DNA of 63,955 nucleotides, filler included, from Candidatus Coatesbacteria bacterium (GCA_016927185.1; 5 parts of 5 records of this genome joined end to end with filler, not necessarily neighbours in it), one strand, 5' to 3'. Positions 7,405-63,955 are shown, counted from the whole stretch's first letter. The notes: generated by a model not told the origin, from the letters alone. Translations and numbers: made by a program.

Positions 7405-7678
7405 CAGGAAAATGTTTTTTTGGGGGAAAAAAGAATTTATTCCTTATAATTCAATGACTGATAATTGGTTATATGAGAATGCTAAAGTTAGATAATAAAG
7501 AAGGTTCTGTAAGTTGTTGAAAAAAAATATTTTTACAGATTTACTGATAAATTCTAACTTTTATAGGTATTTACCTTGGAATCTTGACTGAGCTTTAATA
7601 TTTTTAGCTTGACAAAGAATTCCTCATATTTAATCTTGAACCTAACATTGTTATCTTATTAGAGGCAAGGAGAGGGGC

Positions 7679-15878: not shown

Positions 15879-15906
15879 TTGACAAAAAAAGTGATTTGAT
15901 TATAAT
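15879..15906 (+). promoter_or_regulatory. Consensus sigma70 promoter
   Basis: TTGACA-16 nt-TATAAT upstream of the two acidic peptide genes. Confidence 0.75.
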
Positions 15907-15967: not shown

Positions 15968-16153
15968 ATGAAAAGATTCCTACTTTTGTTAGGACTCGTA
16001 CTTATGCTCTCTACCTGGGCAATCGCAGAAGATGAAGATAGTGATGATGGAGATGACACAGGAACTACCGAAACATCAACAGGAACATCAGATACAGGTG
16101 ATGACACAGGTGATGACACAGGAGATGACACAGGTGATGACGACGAAGAATAA
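15968..16153 (+). CDS. Small secreted acidic D/T/G-rich peptide 1
   Basis: GGAGG RBS, signal peptide ending AIA, then DDTG repeats. Confidence 0.75.
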   Translation: MKRFLLLLGLVLMLSTWAIAEDEDSDDGDDTGTTETSTGTSDTGDDTGDDTGDDTGDDDEE

Positions 16154-16225: not shown

Positions 16226-16420
16226 ATGAAAAAGCTCTTGTTGACAATCGCATTTGCTCTCTTGCTTTCAAGCTGGGCATTTGCAGAGGATGATGGCGGT
16301 TGTGGGGATGACACTGATACAGGAACTACGGATACAGGGACAACTGATACCGGTTCAACTGACACTGGTTCAACTGATACTGATACAGATACAGATACCG
16401 GTGACGAAGATACTGAATAA
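16226..16420 (+). CDS. Small secreted acidic D/T/G-rich peptide 2
   Basis: AGGAGG RBS, signal peptide ending AFA, then TDTG and DT repeats. Confidence 0.75.
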   Translation: MKKLLLTIAFALLLSSWAFAEDDGGCGDDTDTGTTDTGTTDTGSTDTGSTDTDTDTDTGDEDTE

Positions 16421-20151: not shown

Positions 20152-20229
20152 CTCACCCCTGCCTTTCTCTTTGTTGACACCTCACCCCTTGCCCCCTCTC
20201 CTTGTAGGAGAGGGGGCAAGGGGTGAGGT
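20152..20229. repeat. REP-like GC-rich palindrome
   Basis: Perfect 24-bp stem ACCTCACCCCTTGCCCCCTCTCCT-tgt-AGGAGAGGGGGCAAGGGGTGAGGT (20179-20229), preceded by a partial copy CTCACCCCTGCC. Confidence 0.75.
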
Positions 20230-20281
20230 TAAAAATTGAACAATTCTACCAAAGTAAAGCCTTTTCTATTGGATGTTAAAA

Positions 20282-47913: not shown

Positions 47914-47989
47914 TCATTATATTATGTCATTATGGTAAAGACTTATATTTTAGGTGATATAACAATTTACGATTGTCAGGTAAGGAAAC

Positions 47990-48436
47990 ATGTCTGATTT
48001 TTTAAAGGATGCAGAACAAATAGCAAACAAGTTGAGAACACTGGGGCAGGTTGCTCCCCAGAAAGCAAAGTCAGGACTTGCTGCTGCTGCTTCTGCAATC
48101 TCCAGTCAGGCAAAGGCACTTGCACCAAGAAGGACAGGGCATTTGAAACACAGCATATCCCAGTCAGTATATCCTGTTGTTGGTGGAATGAAGGCAGTTA
48201 TTGGAACTAATGTTCATTATGTAGTTGTAACAGAAGAAGGGACAAACATTTATCCAATCATACCAACAAGAAGGAAAACAACAAGGAGAAGGAAAAGAAC
48301 AAGAAGATACTTTAATCTGAATAGACAAAAGAGAGTTAAAAAGAATGTTTATAATATTGATGATTTGCTTTTCCTGATTGTTGAAAAAGTCAGCAAAGAA
48401 GTTAATGATAGTGTAGAACAAATTTTCAAGAAATGA
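47990..48436 (+). CDS. HK97 gp10 family phage tail-component-like protein
   Basis: AKALAP.RTG.L..SI...VIGTNVHY...E.GT motif; AAGGA RBS. Confidence 0.75.
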   Translation: MSDFLKDAEQIANKLRTLGQVAPQKAKSGLAAAASAISSQAKALAPRRTGHLKHSISQSVYPVVGGMKAVIGTNVHYVVVTEEGTNIYPIIPTRRKTTRRRKRTRRYFNLNRQKRVKKNVYNIDDLLFLIVEKVSKEVNDSVEQIFKK

Positions 48437-48463
48437 TTTGTTTCTTGAAAATTTCTTAAACAA

Positions 48464-51160
48464 TCACTTGAAAACTTCTGTCAACACTTTGAAATTATTC
48501 AACTTATCTCTGTAGTCTTCCCACTTGCCTTGCTTGACATATAGAGAGTGGAAGTTGCAATCCTTGTAAAATTCTGATGCTTCTCTGCACCATTCTTTAA
48601 GTCGTTCCTTTTTCAACAAGGCATTAGTATCTTCAAGTCCTTTTGTTTCAATAATCCAGACATTATCTTTATTCTCTTGAACTATAAAGTCAGGATAATA
48701 ATTTGAAATATTCCCTTCGCAATCCCTGTAATCAATCTTGAAACCTATTGGCATGTAATTCTTTACAAAAGAAATAATATCATTGCAACTGTCAAGAAAT
48801 GCTGCAAATTTAAGTTCCAGATTATTATCACCTACTATTCTATTAAAGATAGAACGCATTGGAAAAATATATTCTTTCCAGTCAGAAAGAAAAGGTCTTG
48901 TATTCTTTACTGAAATAGTTTCTTTTAATTCAGTTACTCCTCTGTCCTCAACAGTCAGCTTGTTCAAAGCCTCTCTAAAAGCTTCTATAATTCCTTTTGT
49001 AACAGTCACTTCTGACAGATTGCAAAGCACATTCCTGTCTTCAATATTGACTGGTATTTCAAAGAGTCTGGTTTCAATGTATTGCTTCACTTTTTCATAT
49101 AGGAAGTCCTTGCCATCTACAAGATGCATGCTTTTTGTAATTGCAAGAACAAAGAAACCTATTGCATTCTGATAATTCTGAATGTATGATTCCTGCAATT
49201 CTGTTCTATGACTTTCTTCTTCAAAAACTAGCTTCTTGAAGATTATCTCCCTCTTGTCTTTTTCTTCAAATTTTGTAAGTTTCATATTCAGGAAAGGCAG
49301 GTCATTTATATTCAGGTTTGCAATGTTCTTGTATTCCCTGTAAAAGCGGGAAGATAATACTGGCAGTTTTATATTCAGGTTCTCTATATTCTTCTTCTTG
49401 TTATCAGTATCTATTTCAATCAAGAAAGGTTTGTTATTTAACTTACTGCCAATAGTCATTGGTTCATATTCCAGTTTAACACCTTCTCTTTCAATAGATT
49501 CCACAAATTCTATAAAAGCAGAAGTTCCTATGACACTAACTTTTTCTTTTAATTCCTGACCTCTGAACATCAACCTCAGTCCTCTTCCAAGTGTTTGTTC
49601 TGGAAGTATTCTGCTTTTTGCTTTGTAGGGACGCAAGCCAACCATTGTAACTACATTCCTGACATCCCAGCCTTCCCTTAACATCATAACTGAAACTATT
49701 GCCTTGTATTTGTTTTCTTCATTGTCAATTTCATGACTGAGCTTTCTCAGGCTTTCCAGTTCTTTCTTTTTGCTGCTATCAGAAGGAGCTTCTGAAATTT
49801 CACCATTGCTCTTTGTATGAATTACCAAGACACCATCTGAAAGAAGCGGGTAATGCGTTTTCAGGAATTCACCAACTTCATCGCAATTCCTTGTATCATC
49901 AGTCATTATGAAAAGCACAGGCTTCTTGCCACTCGGGTTAAACTCATTATAGGACTTTTCCCATTCTTCATATCCCAAGTCAAGATAGTCCTTGTAACGT
50001 TCAGTAAATTTGTCACTGCTTTTTTCTTTCAGTTTCTCACGTGATGCTTTGTCAGGCAACACTGGAGTTTTTACAATATGCTGTTTTATTGCTTCAACTA
50101 ATGGATAGTCACTTATGGTTTCTACAAAGATGCTTCCATTAGTATGCTTTGGGGTTGCTGTGAAATCCAGCTGCAAGGAAAGCTTGCTGTCATTCAAACG
50201 CAGATTGTTGGAAATATCTTCTATATTCTTGAACCATTCCAGCTCTTCATCATGAATATGATGAGCCTCGTCATTAATGACAATCAGGTCAGGAATTCTT
50301 CTTATTATCTGACCTACATCAAGTTTACCGTCAGTTGTCTTGCCTGCTGGTTTCTTTCCAAGAAAGTAATCCATTGTGTTCTCATCATCAATTGAAGGCT
50401 CTTTTGTCCTGCTTTCATATACTCTTTGAATATTTGTTAAAAATATGTTTCCATTGTTTGAAATCAATCCTATATTATCCTGAAAGTGAACTGAAAGCTG
50501 GAAATCATCAAGCCAGTTCTGTCCTTCAAATCCATTGTCAGGTATAATGGGATTTTTGTGAAAAATTTGAAGTGATTTAAAATCAGATTTCAGTCTTTCA
50601 AAAACTATTATGTTTGGGGCAATCACAAGAAAATTATTGCTCAAGTCTTTGCTTTCTTCATATTTCCTGTTGTAGTATGCCCATGCAACAAGCATTGCCA
50701 TGACAACTGTCTTGCCTGTTCCTGTTGCCATCTTTATTACATATCTTGTCCAGTCTTCTGGAAACATCTTTTCTGATATTTGGCTTGAGCTATCATAACG
50801 CATAAGTGAATATGGGTCATGAGCTTTCTCTATTTCAAATAACCATATTACTGATTCAACTGCTTCCCTTTGTGCAAAGTAAAAACAGAATTTGTTGAAA
50901 ATATCTTCTGTGTATTGAACCCTTTCTTCAAGATAATGTTCTGTATCAAACCAGAATTTGAACAAGGCTTTTGTTGTCTCAGTTGCTCCCTTGTAATTGC
51001 TTCTTCTCCATTCCTTTACACCTTTCCTTATCTTGTCAACCAAGGGAGGAATGAGTGTTGCATAATCCTGTTCAATAATCTCATTTTCATCTGGTTTCCA
51101 TCTCAGGGAAGGGTCTATTATCTCATATGGATTTTCTGGAAAATTTTCAAACAAAGCCAT
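48464..51160 (-). CDS. res: Type III restriction-modification Res subunit
   Basis: MATGTGKT, INDEAHH, TATP, LREGWDV, QTLGRGLR, C-terminal YYPDF...IETKG. Confidence 0.92.
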   Translation of the reverse strand: MALFENFPENPYEIIDPSLRWKPDENEIIEQDYATLIPPLVDKIRKGVKEWRRSNYKGATETTKALFKFWFDTEHYLEERVQYTEDIFNKFCFYFAQREAVESVIWLFEIEKAHDPYSLMRYDSSSQISEKMFPEDWTRYVIKMATGTGKTVVMAMLVAWAYYNRKYEESKDLSNNFLVIAPNIIVFERLKSDFKSLQIFHKNPIIPDNGFEGQNWLDDFQLSVHFQDNIGLISNNGNIFLTNIQRVYESRTKEPSIDDENTMDYFLGKKPAGKTTDGKLDVGQIIRRIPDLIVINDEAHHIHDEELEWFKNIEDISNNLRLNDSKLSLQLDFTATPKHTNGSIFVETISDYPLVEAIKQHIVKTPVLPDKASREKLKEKSSDKFTERYKDYLDLGYEEWEKSYNEFNPSGKKPVLFIMTDDTRNCDEVGEFLKTHYPLLSDGVLVIHTKSNGEISEAPSDSSKKKELESLRKLSHEIDNEENKYKAIVSVMMLREGWDVRNVVTMVGLRPYKAKSRILPEQTLGRGLRLMFRGQELKEKVSVIGTSAFIEFVESIEREGVKLEYEPMTIGSKLNNKPFLIEIDTDNKKKNIENLNIKLPVLSSRFYREYKNIANLNINDLPFLNMKLTKFEEKDKREIIFKKLVFEEESHRTELQESYIQNYQNAIGFFVLAITKSMHLVDGKDFLYEKVKQYIETRLFEIPVNIEDRNVLCNLSEVTVTKGIIEAFREALNKLTVEDRGVTELKETISVKNTRPFLSDWKEYIFPMRSIFNRIVGDNNLELKFAAFLDSCNDIISFVKNYMPIGFKIDYRDCEGNISNYYPDFIVQENKDNVWIIETKGLEDTNALLKKERLKEWCREASEFYKDCNFHSLYVKQGKWEDYRDKLNNFKVLTEVFK

Positions 51161-51180
51161 GTCAACTCCTTTACAATTTA

Positions 51181-51606
51181 CTACAGCTCATCTGACAAAT
51201 CCTTTAGCTCAGGATTCTTTTTCCTTATCAGTTTTCTCTTTGCTGTCATTGTCCATTTCTTGAAAATATTCACTTTTACAGATGCTTCTTTGTAGTCTTT
51301 CACTTTTTCAAAGTAAACCAGTTTCTCGAATACTTTTGACTGTCTTACCAGTTTATCTCTTCTCTTGAGTTTTGTTATTCTCTGTTTCAAATCAGCAGTC
51401 ACATCAATAAAGAAGATTTCATTAGCTTCATTTGTCAGTATGTAAACAAAATAACCTGTTTCTTCTACCTTGTCTGCTGCTTCTTTTAATTCCTTTACAA
51501 CCTTCTTGTTTTCTTCAAGCAAATCCTTGTAGTATGGTTTATCCAAGTCAATGATATTCATTGGATTACTGACGTCATGAGGGTATCTGGTCTTTTCTTT
51601 TTTCAT
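51181..51606 (-). CDS. GIY-YIG family protein (degenerate)
   Basis: YFVYILTN...FFIDVT.DL..R, LVYFE, K.W...K..LI...NP...DL. Confidence 0.75.
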   Translation of the reverse strand: MKKEKTRYPHDVSNPMNIIDLDKPYYKDLLEENKKVVKELKEAADKVEETGYFVYILTNEANEIFFIDVTADLKQRITKLKRRDKLVRQSKVFEKLVYFEKVKDYKEASVKVNIFKKWTMTAKRKLIRKKNPELKDLSDEL

Positions 51607-53717
51607 ATTCTCACCTCTATCACTTTTGTTGTGTCATTCCCGAAAATGTCTATGACCTTGACTGCTATTTTGTATTTGCCTTTTTGTTCATATTCATGAG
51701 AAACACTTGTCAGATCCAGTGTTCTGTCCTTCTTTTTCCTGAAGCTCTGCCACATGTTCTCAAAAATATAGCTGCCAGTCCAGACTTCTCTCTTAGATTC
51801 TCCCTCTTGTATCTTTATTATCTCCTTCTTGCTTTCATAGTCAAAGTCAACAGACCAGTAGTCAATCCAGTCAGTCCATTCTTTAGTAAGTATTTCCCTT
51901 GAAACAATTCCCTGTTTGTCTTTTGATATTTTCACTACATTCCCGTTTTCAACAATCACCTTGAAAGCTCCGTTCTTTAATCTCTCTTCTGTTTCCCTGT
52001 TATCATCCTGCCTGTAAAATACACCATAATCTTTCAGCTTGATAACAAGGGAGAGATTCTTTATTTCAGGAAGGACTTCAATATATGCAACATCAAAGAA
52101 CTGGACCTGACCTTTTTCTATTGCACGCCTGTCAAATACATCTCTCGGGATATATTTCAAGGCAAGGTTCACACCCCTGAGTTTCGCTTCGTCTTTCATG
52201 AAGTGAACTACACCCATCTCGTAATCAAAACCTAAAACATCAACCTTGCTAATCTTGTTTTTCCTGCATGATGAAATCACTTCATTAAGCAAAGACAATG
52301 TGACAGGGGAGTCGTATGAACCAACATAAAGCATTGTTGAAGCTTTCTTGCCATGAAATGGAGGAAGCTGGAAAACTCGTTCTGCTTTGTATGCCTGAAG
52401 AATTATATTAATATAATGCTCTTCTTTTTGAATGGACAGGACTTTTTTCTGCTCTTCAGGAAGGTTTGGATCAATTCCAACAAAGTATTGCCTTTCGTAT
52501 TTGCCAAGATTAAGGATTTCGAAACTTCTGTAAGGTTTGCCATCCTTCTTGAGATTTCTCTGGACATCAATAAGTCTTTTTCTTGAAGTATGAATTGCAA
52601 AGCGTCCCAAATCACATCCTATCCATTTCCTGTTAAGCTTTTCTGCAACAGACAAAGTTGTCCCAGAACCGCAGAAGAAGTCTGCAACTAAGTCGCCTTC
52701 ATTAGAAGAAGCTTTGATTATGCGGTCAAGTAAGGCTTCGGGTTTTTGAGTAGGATAGTTTATACGTTCTTGCACAGTAGGTATTTGTTGAAAAGACATT
52801 ATATCATTCCAGACATCACCAATCGCTTTGCCTTTTTCTAAGACTTCATCCAAATATCTTTTTACTCCTCTTCCATCAAAATATTTTCTCCCATCTTTAT
52901 CAATTTTATTGAATCTATTAATATATTCAATTCTATGTTCAGTGCATAGTTTGTTGAAAATAAAAGTACTGTTTTTTGTAACAAAAAAGATTGTATCATG
53001 TCCTCTAATCCAATTTTGGGCTAAACTCTTAAAACCACTTAATACACTAATATCCCATATTATTTCCCTCTGAAAATTCTCTCCCCCAAATACTTCATCC
53101 ATAATCAACCTCAAATGACTGTTAACTCTCCAGTCACAATGAACGTATATACTTCCATCATCTGAAAGCAAATCCCGCATCAAGCTAAGCCTTTCATACA
53201 TCATTGAAAGATAGGAATCTGTTCCTCTTCCCCATGTGTCTCTGTAAGCCAGCTCTTCAATTACTGACTGCTCTTTTGTAAGCTCCTCTCCTTCACCAAC
53301 TTCTATTGAAAAAGAGAAGTCCGCACCTACGTCAAAAGGAGGGTCAATATAAATGAGCTTCAATCCACCTGCCTGTTCTATCTCCTCTCTCAGATATCCA
53401 TTCTTCAATGATGACAGAACCAGCTTGTTGTCCCCCCAGATTAGCTTGTTTGTCCATCCGCCTTTCTGCCTTCCAGTCAGTTTGTCCAGCTCAAACAGAC
53501 CTATTTCTGCAGAGTCCTTTTCCTCTCTTGGTTCGTCAATGTGTTCTATGGACTGGAAAGGAAGGACAATGTTTGTCACTTCATTAGTCTTTCCCTGCCA
53601 TATAAGCTCTGTCTCAAATGGCTCTTCAAACAGCTTGTGTCTGTAATGAGCAGGAAGCGGTTGCCCTTTGTCAATCAAGCTCTTTATTTCCTCTTTTTCC
53701 CTGTCAGTCAGTTGCAT
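51603..53717 (-). CDS. mod: Type III restriction-modification Mod subunit (m6A methyltransferase)
   Basis: NKLIWGDN, LIYIDPPF, YPTQKPE.L..RII.ASS, DFFCGSGT. Confidence 0.92.
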   Translation of the reverse strand: MQLTDREKEEIKSLIDKGQPLPAHYRHKLFEEPFETELIWQGKTNEVTNIVLPFQSIEHIDEPREEKDSAEIGLFELDKLTGRQKGGWTNKLIWGDNKLVLSSLKNGYLREEIEQAGGLKLIYIDPPFDVGADFSFSIEVGEGEELTKEQSVIEELAYRDTWGRGTDSYLSMMYERLSLMRDLLSDDGSIYVHCDWRVNSHLRLIMDEVFGGENFQREIIWDISVLSGFKSLAQNWIRGHDTIFFVTKNSTFIFNKLCTEHRIEYINRFNKIDKDGRKYFDGRGVKRYLDEVLEKGKAIGDVWNDIMSFQQIPTVQERINYPTQKPEALLDRIIKASSNEGDLVADFFCGSGTTLSVAEKLNRKWIGCDLGRFAIHTSRKRLIDVQRNLKKDGKPYRSFEILNLGKYERQYFVGIDPNLPEEQKKVLSIQKEEHYINIILQAYKAERVFQLPPFHGKKASTMLYVGSYDSPVTLSLLNEVISSCRKNKISKVDVLGFDYEMGVVHFMKDEAKLRGVNLALKYIPRDVFDRRAIEKGQVQFFDVAYIEVLPEIKNLSLVIKLKDYGVFYRQDDNRETEERLKNGAFKVIVENGNVVKISKDKQGIVSREILTKEWTDWIDYWSVDFDYESKKEIIKIQEGESKREVWTGSYIFENMWQSFRKKKDRTLDLTSVSHEYEQKGKYKIAVKVIDIFGNDTTKVIEVRI

Positions 53718-53804
53718 TGAAACATTCCTTTCTTCTGAAAGTTTTGATTTTTAACACTCTGCATTGTTTTAATACTTATTAGTCAAGGAAGATTTTTTAT
53801 AAGC

Positions 53805-53901
53805 ACCTCGCCCTCTATCCTATCAGAGGAGGGGAGGAGAAATTCCTCACTCCCTATCTCTCCTTGTAAGAGAGGGGAGAAAGAATGACTGAGGAGAGGT
53901 T
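53805..53901. repeat. Degenerate REP-like element related to 20152-20229
   Basis: CCTCACTCCCTATCTCTCCTTGTAAGAGAGGGG...GAGGTTAAAA resembles CCTCACCCC...CTCTCCTTGTAGGAGAGGGG...GAGGTTAAAA. Confidence 0.65.
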
Positions 53902-53931
53902 AAAAGAAAGTTTACTGAGCTATTCAATCAA

Positions 53932-54066
53932 ATAAAAGCCCTCATCCAGTTTGATTAAAAATAAAAAAGGATAAATCATAATCTTGGTGGATGAGGGCAG
54001 TCGGTTATTATGATTAGTGCAGTAAATAAAATTAACAGTTTCAGGTCAAGGGAAAAGCACCAAGCT
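53932..54066 (-). ncRNA. Detached promoter-sRNA-terminator unit plus a truncated second unit
   Basis: GCCCTCATCCA (53938-53948)/TGGATGAGGGC (53988-53998) stem with A-tract, GGTCAA at 54044-54049, then GAAAAGCACC as in the main array. Confidence 0.55.
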
Positions 54067-54199
54067 CTAATATATCATCTTCATAGAATTTCCTTATAAA
54101 GAAATTTAATAAAGCAACTATCAAATATTTGTATCTATAATTAACTTGACAAGAAAACATATTCTCCATTTCTTTAATATAATTTAAAAGGAGTAAAAT

Positions 54200-55258
54200 A
54201 TGACAGTCTGGGTAGTAAGAGCTGGAAAATATGGAGAGTTGGAATCTATTGCTTTAAATAAAAACATTGTTTTAATAGGCTGGGGTTTAAAATCTCTTAG
54301 TTCTTTTAAAGATATGAAAGAAATAAAGGAAATGCTCGCAAGTAAGTATGCTGATAAAAGCAAAAATAGTATTTCAACTATAGCATCTGAATTGTGGTCT
54401 TTTGCCCATGACATTAAAAAGGGAGAATTAATTGTGTTACCACGCAAAACCAATTCCACTATTGCAGTTGGCGAAGTGATAGGGGATTATGAGTATAGAA
54501 GTGAACTTGAATATAGTCATACAATACCTGTAAAATGGTTGAAAACTGATATCCCGCGTGCACATTTTGATCCAGATTTATTATTTAGTTTTGGCAGCTT
54601 ATTGACAGTTTTTAAAGTAAATAGAGAAAATGCAGAAGAAAGAATAAAGGCATTAATAAGTAATACGAAACCAAATATTAGTGATGATAACAGTGATTAT
54701 TCAGCTGACATAAAGCAAAATTCAGAAGACCAGATACTAAAAATTAGTGATGATAACAGTGATTATTTTACTAACATAAAGCAATATTCAAAAGATCGGA
54801 TACTAACATATATACTAAGAAAATACAAAGGTCATAAACTAGAAAAACTAATAGAAGAGATTTTGAAATCAGAAGGTTATTTCACGCAAGGATCAAACAT
54901 AGGAGCAGATGAAGGAGTAGATATTCTTGCAGGTTCAGGGCAGTTTGGTTTTTCCCATCCCAATTTATGTATTCAAGTCAAATCAGGAAACAATCAAGTT
55001 GATTTAGCTACTTTTCGTAGTCTTCAAGGAACAATGAAAACTTTTAATGCTGAACATGGTCTTCTTGTTAGTTTGTTTGGATTTTCAAGTGCTGTGAAGA
55101 AAGAAGCGAAAAAGAGTTTTTTCAAGATAAGATTATGGGAATTAAATGATATATTTGAAGCTGTTTTAAAAAATTACGAAAAGTTTTCTGAAGATTTAAA
55201 GACAGAATTGCCATTACAAAGAATTTGGATTTTATCAGAAAAAGAAGAAGAAATTTAA
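54200..55258 (+). CDS. Mrr-like restriction endonuclease
   Basis: VWVVRAG N-terminus, C-terminal E.LI..IL...GY, GAD.GVDILA, IQVK, GLLVS..GF, IRLW. Confidence 0.85.
   Translation: MTVWVVRAGKYGELESIALNKNIVLIGWGLKSLSSFKDMKEIKEMLASKYADKSKNSISTIASELWSFAHDIKKGELIVLPRKTNSTIAVGEVIGDYEYRSELEYSHTIPVKWLKTDIPRAHFDPDLLFSFGSLLTVFKVNRENAEERIKALISNTKPNISDDNSDYSADIKQNSEDQILKISDDNSDYFTNIKQYSKDRILTYILRKYKGHKLEKLIEEILKSEGYFTQGSNIGADEGVDILAGSGQFGFSHPNLCIQVKSGNNQVDLATFRSLQGTMKTFNAEHGLLVSLFGFSSAVKKEAKKSFFKIRLWELNDIFEAVLKNYEKFSEDLKTELPLQRIWILSEKEEEI
54677..54808 (+). repeat. 66-bp in-frame tandem duplication in the Mrr linker
   Basis: ISDDNSDYSADIKQNSEDQILK / ISDDNSDYFTNIKQYSKDRILT. Confidence 0.9.
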
Positions 55259-55313
55259 TAGTTATTAGAGAAATATAAAACTACTGGAGAATTGTAAAAG
55301 CGAAATAATTGAT

Positions 55314-55348
55314 AATAGAAAAGGCTTTTGTTAAAGCCTTTTCTATTG
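55314..55348. terminator. Bidirectional terminator between convergent genes
   Basis: AATAGAAAAGGCTTT-tgtt-AAAGCCTTTTCTATT. Confidence 0.75.
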
Positions 55349-55358
55349 GAGGTAAAGA

Positions 55359-56624
55359 CTAATTTATTTTTACTATTCTTTTTGTTTCCTTCCCTGATTT
55401 AACAATATAAACTCCTTCTCTCCAGCTGCTTGTATCAAGTTTATGCATGCCTTTGGGAAGGTTCATTATCAGTTGACCTGTAATGGAATAGACAGCTCCT
55501 GAAGAAGGCAAGAAAACTGACAAGCGGGAGGAAAAGGGGTTGGGAGAAACTGAGAAGGATTTGGCTGGTATATATGAAGCTGTTTTGCTAGCCTTGAAAC
55601 CTGTATAACCAGTATCTATTGCATAAAGATAATGATCATTACTGCCTATAAACACAGTTCCTCCTCCAATGCTTGGTGAAGAAGCAACATTACCTCCAGT
55701 CAAATATCTCCAAAGAAGAGTCCCATCAGAAATATTTATTGCATAAAGATAACGATCATTACTGCCTACGTAAGCTGCTCCATTTGAAACACAGGGAGAT
55801 GTTACATTTCCACCTGTTAGATATCTCCATACAAGGGTTCCATCTGAAATATTTATAGCATAAAGATAACGATCATTACTGCCAACATAAACAACTCCAT
55901 TTGCAACACATGGTGATGAGTTTATTGTATTTCCAGTTAAATATCTCCAGACAAGAGTACCGTCTGAAGCATTAATTGCATAAAGATATCTATCATCACT
56001 GCCAACATAAACAACTCCATTAGCTAAACAAGGAGAAGAGCTTACATTGTTTCCAGTGAGATATCTCCAGCTTAAAGTACCATTTGAAGCAGTTACTGCA
56101 TAAAGGTAGTTATCATCACTACCAACAAATACTGCTGTGTTTGAAACGCAGGGAGATGAAGTAACATTGCCCCCGGTTAGATATCTCCATATAAGGGTTC
56201 CATCTGAAGTATTGATTGCGTATAGATAACGATCATTACTTCCAACGAAAGCAACTCCGTTTGCAACATATGGTGATGACGTTACGTTTCCACCTGTCTG
56301 ATATCTCCATATAAGGGTTCCATCTGAAGTATTGATTGCGTATAGATGACGATCATTACTTCCAACGAAAGCAACTCCGTTTGCAACATATGGTGATGAC
56401 GTTACGTTTCCACCTGTCTGATATCTCCATGCAAGCGTGCCATCAAAAGTACTATTAGCATAAAGGAAACGATCATTACTCCCTACGTAGACAGTATTGC
56501 TTAGAACATAGGGAGAGGAAGCAACATTGTTTCCTGTCTGGTATCTCCATAACAGGTCTCCTGGTGCTGAAAAAAGACATTCAAATAAACAGACAATGAA
56601 TAGAAAAACAATATAGTTTCTCAT
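55359..56624 (-). CDS. Eight-repeat PQQ-like beta-propeller protein with T9SS-like CTD
   Basis: GGAGG RBS, signal peptide, eight ~40-aa WRY.TG.NV.SSP.V..G..YVGSND..LYAIN..DGTL repeats, SPNPF...GVYIVK CTD. Confidence 0.9.
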   Translation of the reverse strand: MRNYIVFLFIVCLFECLFSAPGDLLWRYQTGNNVASSPYVLSNTVYVGSNDRFLYANSTFDGTLAWRYQTGGNVTSSPYVANGVAFVGSNDRHLYAINTSDGTLIWRYQTGGNVTSSPYVANGVAFVGSNDRYLYAINTSDGTLIWRYLTGGNVTSSPCVSNTAVFVGSDDNYLYAVTASNGTLSWRYLTGNNVSSSPCLANGVVYVGSDDRYLYAINASDGTLVWRYLTGNTINSSPCVANGVVYVGSNDRYLYAINISDGTLVWRYLTGGNVTSPCVSNGAAYVGSNDRYLYAINISDGTLLWRYLTGGNVASSPSIGGGTVFIGSNDHYLYAIDTGYTGFKASKTASYIPAKSFSVSPNPFSSRLSVFLPSSGAVYSITGQLIMNLPKGMHKLDTSSWREGVYIVKSGKETKRIVKIN

Positions 56625-56762
56625 CAAAATCCCTCCTTCTTTAATCAGAAATCCTAGAGAAAACAAATATTTATTTGTCAAATAAAAAATTAGGATATAC
56701 TAATCTAACCCCTAGACATGATGGACTGAGAAGAAGGAACAAAGCAGTATGGACAGGGAAGG

Positions 56763-57662
56763 AAAAGAAAACCCTCATCCAAATTTACAAATGATATTAA
56801 TGAAGGTAAATATTATTTGACCTATTAAATGGATGAGGATTATTATTAACAGACGCAAGCATAAGAATAATATAAGCATTTGAATGTCAAGAAAAAAAGC
56901 AGCTCTCAGAGGAGTTCCTCTTTGAGCTGCTTAGTAATAACAAAAATGAGGTCTTTAAACCTTGTGCTCTATAATAATAATAAAAAACTTTCTGTCAAGT
57001 CGAAAGCGCTCCGATATGAATTATCGGAATACTAAAAGAAGCAATAAAATGAAACCTTAGTCAGAGCTGTTAAAAAAATTAATATTACCGAGTCAAGAGA
57101 AAAGCACCTCAAAAGGGATATCCGTTTGAGGTGCTGAAGATCAATATTTGAGGTTTGAAAAACCTAGTAAACATCTATATTTTTTAAACAGTTTCTGTCA
57201 AGAAAAAAGCACTCCGATTTGAATAATCGGAGTACTAAAAGAAGCAATAAGATGAAACCTTAGACAGAGCTGTTAAAAAAATTAATATTGCGTTAAGAAA
57301 AAAAAGCACCATGCCATTTTTAAAGCATGGTGCTGGAGTATGATATGAAAACAACAAAGCAATATATCGCCTTGATGTAACAAAAACAAGGATATATAGA
57401 TAATAGAATTAGTCAAGAAAAATGCACCAAAGTTTTTCAAAAAGCTTTGGTGCGTAGAGAGAAAAAGAAATTAGTAAAATCAAATTCAGGAGAGAATTTA
57501 ATTTCAGGGAAAAGATATAAATGCTTGCAAAATAGGTCAAGGAATAAATAAAACTTCACCAGATTAATCTGGTGAAGTAGTTGTTCAAAAAAAAGTCAAC
57601 AAACAAGTCTTGTGATTGCTTGTTGCTGCCATGCAAGATAATATATGAGGAAATCTTGTCAA
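56763..57662 (-). ncRNA. Tandem array of eight putative promoter-small RNA-terminator cassettes
   Basis: -35-like boxes (minus strand TTGAC) start at 56885, 56993, 57091, 57196, 57291 (degenerate), 57411, 57535 and 57657. Each unit ends in a GC-rich hairpin plus U-tract abutting the next -35. No substantial ORFs. Confidence 0.7.
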
Positions 57663-57715
57663 GAGGAAAGGGAGAGAAGGAAAAAATCCAAGATAGTATT
57701 AATAAAAACCTTAAA

Positions 57716-58011
57716 TTAAAAACTTATCTCCTTAGTATATTCTATAACATTGAAATCTTCAAACATGCAAGCTTGATTTAATAAGTGGCTTATTAAAACA
57801 TAGAAAAATAATAAAGGTTTAGTAGTCAAACTTGCTATAGAAATAGATCCTTGACTCGGTAAAGCTGAAAAATTCCCTAGCTGATCTTTATTTATTATTA
57901 CTCCCTTTCTTAATATACAAATAGAATCTATTCTTTTATCAACTTCATCATTTGACTGCAATTCAATCAAGTTTTTATTGACCACATCTGGAGCATCTGA
58001 ATCAAATGCAA
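57716..58011 (-). CDS. 3' part of a hypothetical protein (DUF6602-like), truncated by contig end
   Basis: Frame open to the gap: AFDSDAPDVVNKNL...IDSICILRKG. Confidence 0.55.
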
Positions 58012-58111
58012 NNNNNNNNNNNNNNNNNNNNNNNNNNNNNNNNNNNNNNNNNNNNTTAATTAATTAANNNNNNNNNNNNNNNNNNNNNNNNNNNNNNNNN
58101 NNNNNNNNNNN
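58012..58111. other. Artificial contig linker
   Basis: N-run with TTAATTAATTAA. Confidence 0.98.
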
Positions 58112-58384: not shown

Positions 58385-59749
58385 ATGAAACAAGCCAAAT
58401 TCAAGGCTTTACTTTTTCCAAAGCCTTACTCCAATGGATTATATCCTATTTATATAAGGATATATCAAAACAGAAAATCTAACTATATATCTATGGGGCA
58501 TTCTATCCCGCAGGGGGCTTGGAATCCTGATAAGAATGAAGTATGGGAATCAAAGCCCAGCCTTACAGAAAAACTGAAGCAATCCTTATCAAAAGAAGAA
58601 ATAAAAGCATTCAGACAAAAACAAGCTTCTATCATTCTCATCACAAATGCTATAAAGATTAATTCAGATATTAGGGTTAAAATAGCAGAACTTGAAAGCC
58701 TTCAAAATAAATTGTCAGTAAATCAGGAAGCTATTACTTCTGGGATATTAAAGAACAAGGCAGACAGGAAAGATATTGCTGAAAAATCAAGGAAGGATTT
58801 TCTTCTTTATATTGAAGAAGTAGCTAAAAGGAAATATGAAAAGAAACAGATAAGAACTTCAGAGAAATATTCAGCTTTGCTTAGAAAACTGAAAGCATTT
58901 AGGAAGGATAAGCCCCTGCCCCTTGAAGAATTAACAACAAGCTTCCTGAATGATTATCAGTTGTATCTTCAGAAAGAAGGAAGCCATCAAAACTATATTA
59001 ATGTAAATCTAAGTGTCTTAAGAACAATCATTCAGAAGGATGCAATCAAGGAAGACAAAATATTATCACCTGAAAAAAATCCTTTTATTTGGTTTACAAT
59101 GCCAAAGATTCTTCCTACTCATAAAGAAAAACTTGATATTAATGAACTACAAAAAATTGAAGGTTTACAGCTTGAAAAGAATCAATCACTATATCATGTT
59201 AGAAATGCTTTCATCTTCAGCCTTTATAATGCCGGGATAAGAATAGGGGATTTACTCCAACTGAAATGGTGCAATATTAAGGAAGATGGAAGGCTGGAAT
59301 ATTATATGGGCAAAACAGGAAGTGAAAGAAGTATAAAGCTTCTTCCCCAATCTATGAAGATTCTTAAGCTTTATGAATCAGACAAAGAAAAAGATGCAGA
59401 TTATATCTTCCCCTTCCTTGACAACAAAGCCCCGTATTCTAAACTGATAAGTCCAGAAGATTTTCAGAAGGCTTCCCCAGAACTTCTGGTATTATTATAT
59501 AATAAAATTGAAAGCCAAGCAACGATGTATAATCTGGCTTTAAAAACCATTGCAAAAGAAGCAAAAATCAAGAAGAAGATTTCTTCTCATATTGCTAGGC
59601 ATTCATTTGCTGATATTGCCAGGAAGAAAGTATCAGTTTATGACATTCAAAAGATGCTGGGTCATACATCGATGAAAACAACTGAAGCTTACCTTAAATC
59701 TCTTGATAATGATGCAATGGATAAGGCAATGGAAGAAGTATTCAAATAA
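58385..59749 (+). CDS. int: Site-specific tyrosine integrase (arm-binding + SAM-like + catalytic domains)
   Basis: G.YPIYIRI N-terminal arm domain; AGIRIGD (R), KT, SHIARHSFA (H..R), LGH, T..Y. Confidence 0.95.
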   Translation: MKQAKFKALLFPKPYSNGLYPIYIRIYQNRKSNYISMGHSIPQGAWNPDKNEVWESKPSLTEKLKQSLSKEEIKAFRQKQASIILITNAIKINSDIRVKIAELESLQNKLSVNQEAITSGILKNKADRKDIAEKSRKDFLLYIEEVAKRKYEKKQIRTSEKYSALLRKLKAFRKDKPLPLEELTTSFLNDYQLYLQKEGSHQNYINVNLSVLRTIIQKDAIKEDKILSPEKNPFIWFTMPKILPTHKEKLDINELQKIEGLQLEKNQSLYHVRNAFIFSLYNAGIRIGDLLQLKWCNIKEDGRLEYYMGKTGSERSIKLLPQSMKILKLYESDKEKDADYIFPFLDNKAPYSKLISPEDFQKASPELLVLLYNKIESQATMYNLALKTIAKEAKIKKKISSHIARHSFADIARKKVSVYDIQKMLGHTSMKTTEAYLKSLDNDAMDKAMEEVFK

Positions 59750-63885: not shown

Positions 63886-63955
63886 AAAAAACCCTCTACA
63901 AGAGAGGGTTTTATAGAGTTATATTTTGTCAAGTATTAGTGATGAAGAATTCTGC

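Follow-up and report, generated by a model that had tools for sequence, protein, structure and literature searches.

A diverging tandem array of putative small RNA genes in a defence island of an uncultivated bacterium

We describe here an unannotated array of short tandem units, putative small RNA (sRNA) genes, on the minus strand of a 63,955-nucleotide (nt) stretch of DNA from Candidatus Coatesbacteria bacterium (GCA_016927185.1). This whole stretch, referred to below as the window, is made up of five contigs joined with N spacers and has a G+C content of 35%. The array occupies about 0.9 kb without genes (56766-57662) on a contig of 10.1 kb (47914-58011), where the order of features runs from a phage tail gene through a type III restriction-modification (R-M) system, an Mrr-like nuclease gene and a beta-propeller gene to the array, and then to an open reading frame (ORF) that is cut by the contig end (Table 1). 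An earlier note on this DNA had presented the array as eight self-contained sRNA genes and as a candidate for an undescribed RNA system. The feature is real, and it most likely belongs to a known kind, that of tandem sibling sRNA genes.

Anatomy of the array and its departure from chance

Read on the minus strand, the array carries seven CTTGAC boxes and one CTTAAC box (in U4; the units are numbered U1 to U8 from the side of the cut ORF), one every 95-124 nt. On the plus strand these are the GTCAAG motifs that start at 56886, 56994, 57092, 57197, 57412, 57536 and 57658, and the GTTAAG that starts at 57292. The distances from box to box (108, 98, 105, 95, 120, 124 and 122 nt) are exactly those given in the earlier note, whose box coordinates lie one base low. 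Each (C)TTGAC box stands 6-12 nt past the preceding GC-rich stem with its U tract, and -10-like hexamers follow after spacers of 16-17 nt in five units (U1, U2, U3, U5 and U7), as the note had reported. All of the stems that it listed exist, and the layout that it recognised, of sigma70-type -35 boxes and intrinsic terminators on the minus strand, was borne out.

The predicted RNAs, of 60-95 nt, follow a common plan, with a 5' stem-loop, a single-stranded U/C-rich linker of 11-22 nt and a GC-rich terminator followed by a U tract. This two-hairpin layout recurs in seven units, the hairpin of U8 being atypical. Six of the eight units have a strong GC stem and then a U tract; the stem of U6 is weak, and U8 has a long-loop stem with a U-rich tail, in which 12 bp (CCUCAUCCA paired with UGGAUGAGG) enclose an AU-rich loop of 48 nt ahead of U and C residues. 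A run of eight U residues follows the 5' hairpin of U1. The loop of the 5' hairpin of U2 carries CUCUCCUG, and the C/U-rich linker of this unit extends over 22 nt; the linker of U3, behind a 5' hairpin at 57355-57374, carries ACUCC. The 5' hairpins of U5 and U7 are AGGUUU/AAACCU and AGGUU/GACCU, respectively.

Not every unit is complete. U4 has an intact terminator and a degenerate -35 box (TTAACG), and the terminator of U6 is weakened by one A.C mismatch and a broken U tract (UUUCGAC), so that the promoter of the one and the terminator of the other look to be in decay. Therefore the number of intact units is probably nearer five or six than eight. The eight self-contained genes of the earlier note are an overcount: U4 lacks a -10-like hexamer in addition to its altered -35 box, U6 combines the absence of a -10 with its weak stem and broken U tract, and U8 has a hairpin of another type.

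The tiling of the array is not a product of chance. CTTGAC occurs 49 times in the window, compared to 26.3 +/- 5.1 times in shuffles, and seven of the 49 copies fall within the array's 780 nt, all of them on the minus strand. Five of the seven matches to a pattern of T tract plus box lie inside the array, for a whole-window expectation of 1.4, and a pattern of three junctions matches twice in the window, both times at the array, and in none of 100 shuffles. When the whole window was scanned for terminators, 8 of the 55 matches fell in the array, which makes up 1.6% of the window, again all on the minus strand; a consensus scan was less clear-cut, with four terminators in the region where 1.7 +/- 1.4 were expected. 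Folding gave a similar picture, with eight of the nine predicted RNAs (U1 to U8 and U9, an outlying copy treated below) more stable than all 200 of their shuffles (z -3.4 to -7.3). The exception is U6, for which 29 of the 200 shuffles were equally stable.

Neither a known RNA family nor a coding signal was found. A search of 55000-58015 against Rfam, on both strands and at E<=10, returned no family and two chance-level matches (mir-1264, 18.8 bits against a gathering threshold of 79 bits; sR39, 14.8 against 50 bits), and with ARAGORN neither a tRNA nor a tmRNA was detected in the window. None of the ORFs of the array shows evidence of coding: none of its 11 ORFs of 32-66 amino acids has a Pfam match at E<=1, no homologues of the longest, of 66 amino acids, were found, and U8 and U9 have no reading frame in common. 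A blastn comparison of the array with phage records gave no match. One match to a plasmid (59 nt, 81%, E 5e-4), inside an ATP-binding cassette (ABC) transporter gene of a Fusobacteria plasmid, was taken as chance. Repeats of the type seen in clustered regularly interspaced short palindromic repeats (CRISPR), whose absence the earlier note had stated, are indeed lacking, and so are repeats of the ToxI type; the only repeats are a unit duplication of 98/130 nt and a short junction motif. A self-search of the window for copies of the miniature inverted-repeat transposable element (MITE) or repetitive extragenic palindrome (REP) type likewise found the internal duplication and the diverged U9 only. 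A single precursor, which the note had also discounted, is not plausible, since strong terminators separate the units.

Kinship of the units and the role of the CTTGAC box

Self-comparison of the array revealed a two-unit period of 203 bp and a duplication of 98 bp with 91% identity (57192-57289 and 56989-57086). Whole-unit identities reach 86% for U4/U6 (z 18), 69% for U5/U7 (z 7.6) and 64% for U8/U9 (z 5.3), and 14 of the 36 unit pairs score above z 2.5. In a k-mer search AGGUUU proved common to U4-U7, and UAUUGCUU to U3, U4 and U6. Inspection by eye found paired changes in the terminators, from U-A to A-U at the top of the stem in U4/U6 and from C-G to G-C in U5/U7; in U2, U3 and U5 the terminator stem has one and the same base, GCACC/GGUGC, above which the inner stems are wholly different yet complementary. 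Because three of the pairs are clear paralogues, the array has evidently grown by repeated tandem duplication and divergence; its units are paralogues. The earlier description of the array as a cassette library of unrelated bodies does not survive this comparison.

The ninth unit, U9, lies 2.8 kb from U8 on the same strand, and ahead of it, at ~54050-54065, there is an unpartnered 3' half of a terminator (GCTTGGTGCTTTTCC). The Mrr-like and beta-propeller genes are flanked by U8 on one side and U9 on the other, which would fit an insertion of this two-gene segment into an older array, or its passage through one by recombination.

The box from which each unit would start is not peculiar to the array. 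Coding DNA carries 0.50 copies of CTTGAC per kb, intergenic DNA away from the array 2.14 and the array itself 6.89; the box is 4-fold enriched in the intergenic DNA of this genome, and many of its copies stand shortly upstream of start codons. It appears to behave as a promoter element in this genome, as its own -35 box. Furthermore, the putative promoter of U1, from the -35 box through the spacer to about +1 (57662-57633), is near-identical to 7609-7640 (+), a site 70 nt upstream of pilM; this pair, with a score of 17, ranks top of 9,576 pairs of TTGAC sites, and the next scores 12. It is because of this near-identity, the best single argument, that U1 at least is predicted to have a working promoter. 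The likeness of the two sites points to an operator in common or to the copying of a promoter, and it hints at co-regulation with the pilus operon.

Neighbouring genes and other features of the window

The cut ORF lies on the upstream side of the array, with its stop codon 54 nt before U1. Its assignment as NucC-like rests on homologues, the DUF6602 domain of the ORF itself falling past the point where the contig breaks off. Five homologues (224-273 amino acids, all with PF20247) match the fragment in their C-terminal parts at 47-58% identity, and for one of them, the full-length P0002, solved NucC structures were matched (E 7e-17 to 1e-13). The DUF6602/NucC-like family comprises 5,041 representatives at E<=0.001. 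NucC is the effector nuclease of cyclic oligonucleotide-based antiphage signalling systems (CBASS) and of type III CRISPR systems, and a locus of one of these two kinds may therefore follow just past the contig end.

For the beta-propeller gene on the downstream side of the array, the likely start is the ATG that follows AAGGAGGG. The family to which the Mrr-like nuclease is assigned, PDC-S02, is a PADLOC candidate for a single-gene defence system. The defence-island setting proposed in the earlier note is supported by the type III R-M system, the PDC-S02 nuclease and the NucC-like fragment, and the island appears from these assignments to hold more defence genes than had been noticed. The link between the array and these genes is one of position only, and on present evidence a place in a defence island marks where variable DNA accumulates and does not indicate a function.

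On the minus strand between U9 and the promoter of the methylase gene (53790-53930), we observed two pyrimidine/purine-rich GC hairpins, CUCCCCUCUC...GAGAGAUAGGGAG and CCUCCCCUCCUC...GAGGGCGAGG; CCCTC/GAGGG is the most enriched 5-mer of the intergenic DNA (6-fold). The next contig carries a tyrosine recombinase of 454 amino acids (58385-59749, +) with weak XerC/XerD-type matches. Genes elsewhere in the window, on other contigs, include those for PorU, PilMNOPQ, a V-type ATPase and an extracytoplasmic function (ECF) sigma factor, and the gene content together with the G+C content suggests that the source organism is an uncultivated bacterium possessing a type IX secretion system (T9SS). Two adjoining small genes (~15968-16153 and 16226-16420, +) encode acidic Asp/Thr/Gly-rich repeats after signal peptides, and a perfect TTGACA-16-TATAAT promoter is found in the same area, at 15879. 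A GC-rich, perfect, long palindrome, CCTCACCCCTTGCCCCCTCTCC...GGAGAGGGGGCAAGGGGTGAGG, lies in intergenic DNA (~20180-20230, +) adjoining the L34 (rpmH) gene. Lastly, at 63888-63932 (-), just upstream of an ABC-transporter ATPase gene, TTGACA is followed after ~25 nt by a strong terminator hairpin; this may represent a leader, an attenuator or the last part of a gene lying outside the window.

Table 1. Array units and genes of the array contig. Positions count from the first base of the window; -35 and -10 elements, terminators and RNAs are predicted, and fold z compares each RNA with its shuffles.
Feature	Position	Strand	Terminator or stem	Fold z	Remarks
DUF6602 / NucC-like endonuclease, C-terminal 97 amino acids	57716..58009	-			cut by contig end
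U1	57541..57662	-	57553-57578	-6.26	-35 TTGACA 57662-57657, 16-nt spacer, TATCTT 57640-57635; 10/12 promoter matches
U2	57417..57540	-	57424-57453	-7.30	TTGACC, 17-nt spacer, TATCTT ending 57512; 9/12 matches
U3	57297..57416	-	57305-57334	-5.42	TTGACT, 16-nt spacer, TATCCT ending 57389; 9/12 matches
U4	57202..57296	-	57208-57236	-6.01	degenerate -35 TTAACG; no -10-like hexamer
U5	57097..57201	-	57103-57135	-5.70	TTGACA, 16-nt spacer, TATAGA 57179-57174 (seen in sequence)
U6	56999..57096	-	57005-57033	-1.14	TTGACT; no -10-like hexamer
U7	56891..56998	-	56897-56932	-4.19	TTGACA, 16-nt spacer, TATTAT ending 56971; 11/12 matches, the region's best
U8	56766..56890	-	56770-56841	-3.38	TTGACA; last unit ahead of the beta-propeller gene
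Secreted PQQ-like beta-propeller with T9SS C-terminal sorting domain	55359..56624	-			downstream neighbour
Mrr-like nuclease	54200..55258	+			Mrr_cat E 4e-19; PADLOC PDC-S02 E 1e-123, full length
U9	53935..54049	-		-6.05	diverged U8 copy between Mrr-like and methylase genes
Type III R-M system	48464..53717	-			Mod 51603-53717, Res 48464-51160
GIY-YIG domain gene	51181-51606	-			between mod and res
HK97-gp10-like phage tail gene	47990-48436	+			array contig

Interpretation of the array and its known relatives

The reading that we favour, with confidence that is evenly balanced, is that the array is a tandemly duplicated and diverging cluster of independently transcribed sRNA genes on the minus strand. 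Every unit would open with the -35 box of this genome, (C)TTGAC, placed 6-12 nt beyond the terminator that closes the preceding unit. With a promoter and a Rho-independent terminator to itself, it would give an RNA of 60-95 nt. Such a layout is typical of trans-acting base-pairing regulatory RNAs. The exposed U/C-rich linkers and 5' loops might then serve as seeds that pair with mRNAs; CUCUCCUG in the 5' loop of U2 and ACUCC in the linker of U3, for example, could mask ribosome-binding sites. Duplication and divergence would diversify the targets, with diverged siblings acquiring diverged targets.

Several observations weigh against this. Promoter-like sites found by the consensus scan in the region number 16 against 10.9 +/- 2.9 expected, an enrichment that is not significant, and the same scan gives a promoter of at least 9/12 matches in only four of the eight units. 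The best-conserved pair, U4 and U6, has no recognisable -10. The paired changes are known from just two paralogue pairs, and no motif present in every unit body emerged from the k-mer search. A scan of the eight unit bodies against 57 start regions (456 tests, each with 30 shuffles) gave a best z of -4.2, which is unconvincing, and the flanking genes were not outstanding in it; duplexes predicted between units involve paralogous terminators only. An RNA chaperone gene is absent from the window. Finally, the pattern of three junctions was used to scan genome contigs, and none of the loci among the matches listed, at least 119 in number, is similar to the window by blastn.

The same scan does indicate that the layout recurs. 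Most of the matches listed are coding or near-identical tandem repeats, such as a near-identical repeat of 95 nt (L067) and repeats of a 34-codon coding type, resembling tetratricopeptide repeats by eye (L079 and L048). At least nine loci among the matches listed have three or more phased junctions of hairpin, T tract and TTGAC, and six of these nine were inspected (all except L006, L061 and L097). Of these, three are near-identical tandem repeats (L031, L089 and L096), two look like coding repeats (L007 and L008) and one, L083, is a true analogue. Rfam searches of 14 scanned loci found one tRNA and sub-threshold noise only. L083, in an uncultured Clostridia genome, is an unannotated array of four to five units of ~113 nt (at ~700-1330, -) in which TTGACA, a 17-nt spacer, an extended -10 and a variable body of ~50 nt lead to a terminator whose U tract abuts the next TTGACA. 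It differs from the window array in that its terminators are near-identical between units and CCUCC occurs in three bodies; it also comes from another phylum and has no sequence similarity to the window. No Rfam family was assigned to it, and Pfam matches of its neighbours were uninformative. L083 shows that the arrangement recurs independently; it is silent on the conservation of the window array.

Described sRNA clusters offer parallels too. The LhrC1-5 genes of Listeria monocytogenes, with their gene layout and C/U-rich pairing motifs, and PrrF1/PrrF2 of Pseudomonas resemble the window array as multicopy sibling sRNAs of ~100 nt whose genes each carry a promoter and a terminator, some of them next to one another. 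They differ from it in having fewer tandem copies and conserved seeds, whereas the window units share no seed and carry anti-Shine-Dalgarno-like CUCC/UCC in only two or three units. LhrC1-5 is named as a family, and the prrF genes as tandem, in a review (PMC6794450). In Nostoc sp. PCC 7120, the sRNA NsiR1, of ~60 nt, is encoded 12 times in tandem, each copy under a promoter to itself (PMC9045159), and the likeness extends to the position of these many short genes upstream of a protein gene. Tandem, individually transcribed sRNAs were therefore already on record. Unlike NsiR1, the window units are strongly diverged (55-86% identity), have a TTGAC-type -35 box and lie in a defence island; the array has no sequence relation to NsiR1 and no Rfam match. 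A full-text search of the literature for tandem sRNA arrays in defence islands returned nothing relevant, which is not proof of absence.

The main rival is that the array is functionless debris, and we consider this unlikely, though well within reason. The units would be leftovers of deleted gene cassettes, namely promoters, 5' leaders and terminators, or neutral tandem duplicates of a single junction between terminator and promoter, and their RNAs would be idle even if transcribed. It would account for the U8/U9 copies that bracket the intact pair of Mrr-like and beta-propeller genes, each copy directly upstream of a protein gene, for the unpartnered terminator half ahead of U9, and for the loss of the -35 box in U4 and of the U tract in U6; the kinds of gene that surround the array turn over quickly, and neither targets nor a motif in all bodies were found. 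Debris does not readily explain the uniform size of the units (95-124 nt) or the same two-hairpin layout in seven of them, nor the -35 box at a fixed distance from the terminator in seven of eight units. The hairpins have been maintained via paired changes, and inner stems that differ are still perfect. In addition, a single 203-bp duplication has a U4/U6 part that is 86-91% identical and a U5/U7 part that is 69% identical, a gap that uniform neutral drift does not predict.

It is improbable, in our view, that the array is instead an insulator, a stack of terminators that blocks read-through from the upstream nuclease operon, with -35-like boxes that are incidental or merely re-start transcription. 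All of the hairpins are oriented with the transcription of the NucC-like gene and none serves the plus strand, and there is no terminator between the NucC-like stop codon and U1. For this purpose, however, a strong terminator or two would suffice, and insulation accounts neither for the phasing of the CTTGAC boxes, with -10-like hexamers 16-17 nt from them, nor for the 5' hairpins or the likeness of the U1 promoter to the site upstream of pilM.

A role in defence, as advanced in the earlier note together with anti-defence and silencing, is slightly harder still to credit. Short structured RNAs would here act with the NucC-like or Mrr-like nuclease as antitoxin-like inhibitors, decoys or sensors, and what speaks for it is position: the array begins 54 nt past the NucC-like gene on a 10-kb contig with PDC-S02, type III R-M and a phage tail gene. 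CRISPR and ToxI-like arrays are indeed also periodic non-coding arrays in defence islands. CRISPR and type III toxin-antitoxin arrays consist of near-identical direct repeats that are processed from one precursor, those of CRISPR being 24-48 nt long with unique spacers between them, whereas the window units are without such repeats and each has a promoter-like box and a terminator. In ToxI-ToxN the RNA repeats come first and the endoribonuclease toxin gene, co-transcribed with them, second; at the array the order is the opposite, with the nuclease gene, a DNA endonuclease homologue, upstream and the beta-propeller gene downstream. No phage record matched, and no recurrent association emerged, none of the listed loci of the genome-contig scan being related. 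The claim of an undescribed RNA system with such a role goes back to the neighbourhood; no co-occurring protein, phage match or target was found, and the proposal of a novel defence system based on RNA finds no support. One form of the idea, to which we attach a very small probability, is that rapidly diversifying, independently expressed host RNAs work with the NucC-like or PDC-S02 nucleases, for example as inhibitors or decoys that would be lost or sequestered in the course of infection, so freeing the nuclease. If true, this would be an RNA-based defence module without CRISPR-type repeats or the layout of a type III antitoxin.

We find it quite implausible that the units encode very small proteins or type I toxin-antitoxin pairs. 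The sequence does offer a possible leaderless ORF of 15 codons near the predicted transcription start of U1 and an 11-codon ORF with a GGAG site on the plus strand in U3. No ORF recurs between units or paralogues, however, U8 and U9 sharing no frame; the 11 ORFs are without Pfam match and the longest without homologue, as given above, and the plus strand opposite the units offers no hydrophobic peptide equipped with a ribosome-binding site.

Least credible of all is a mobile or recombination element, be it a MITE/REP cluster or an integron-like array with attC hairpins. The hairpins do form a one-way series of sites between variable segments, joined by a short conserved GCTTTTTTCTTGAC-like junction, and the window has a tyrosine recombinase on a separate contig. 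The stems, however, are perfect palindromes that run into U tracts, and by inspection they show neither the inverted core sites of attC (RYYYAAC ... GTTRRRY) nor its bulges; TTGAC has no inverted partner upstream, the ~100-nt 'cassettes' hold no ORFs, U9 is the only further copy in the window, and the recombinase scores 41 bits against an integron-integrase cut-off of 265, leaving the array with no linked integrase. Chromosomal integrons are reported to hold defence genes, and DUF6602 appears once in a preprint (10.1101/2024.07.02.601686).

To conclude, the place of the array in a defence island does not at present lift it above an ordinary uncharacterised sRNA cluster. The near-identity of the putative U1 promoter with the site upstream of pilM is a tangible clue to possible co-regulation with type IV pili. 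If transcribed, the array would be among the larger tandem sRNA clusters known, and its products would be riboregulators from an uncultivated T9SS-bearing bacterium, a group in which almost none have been described. It would also have caught the birth of sRNAs by duplication, divergence and decay at a single locus.

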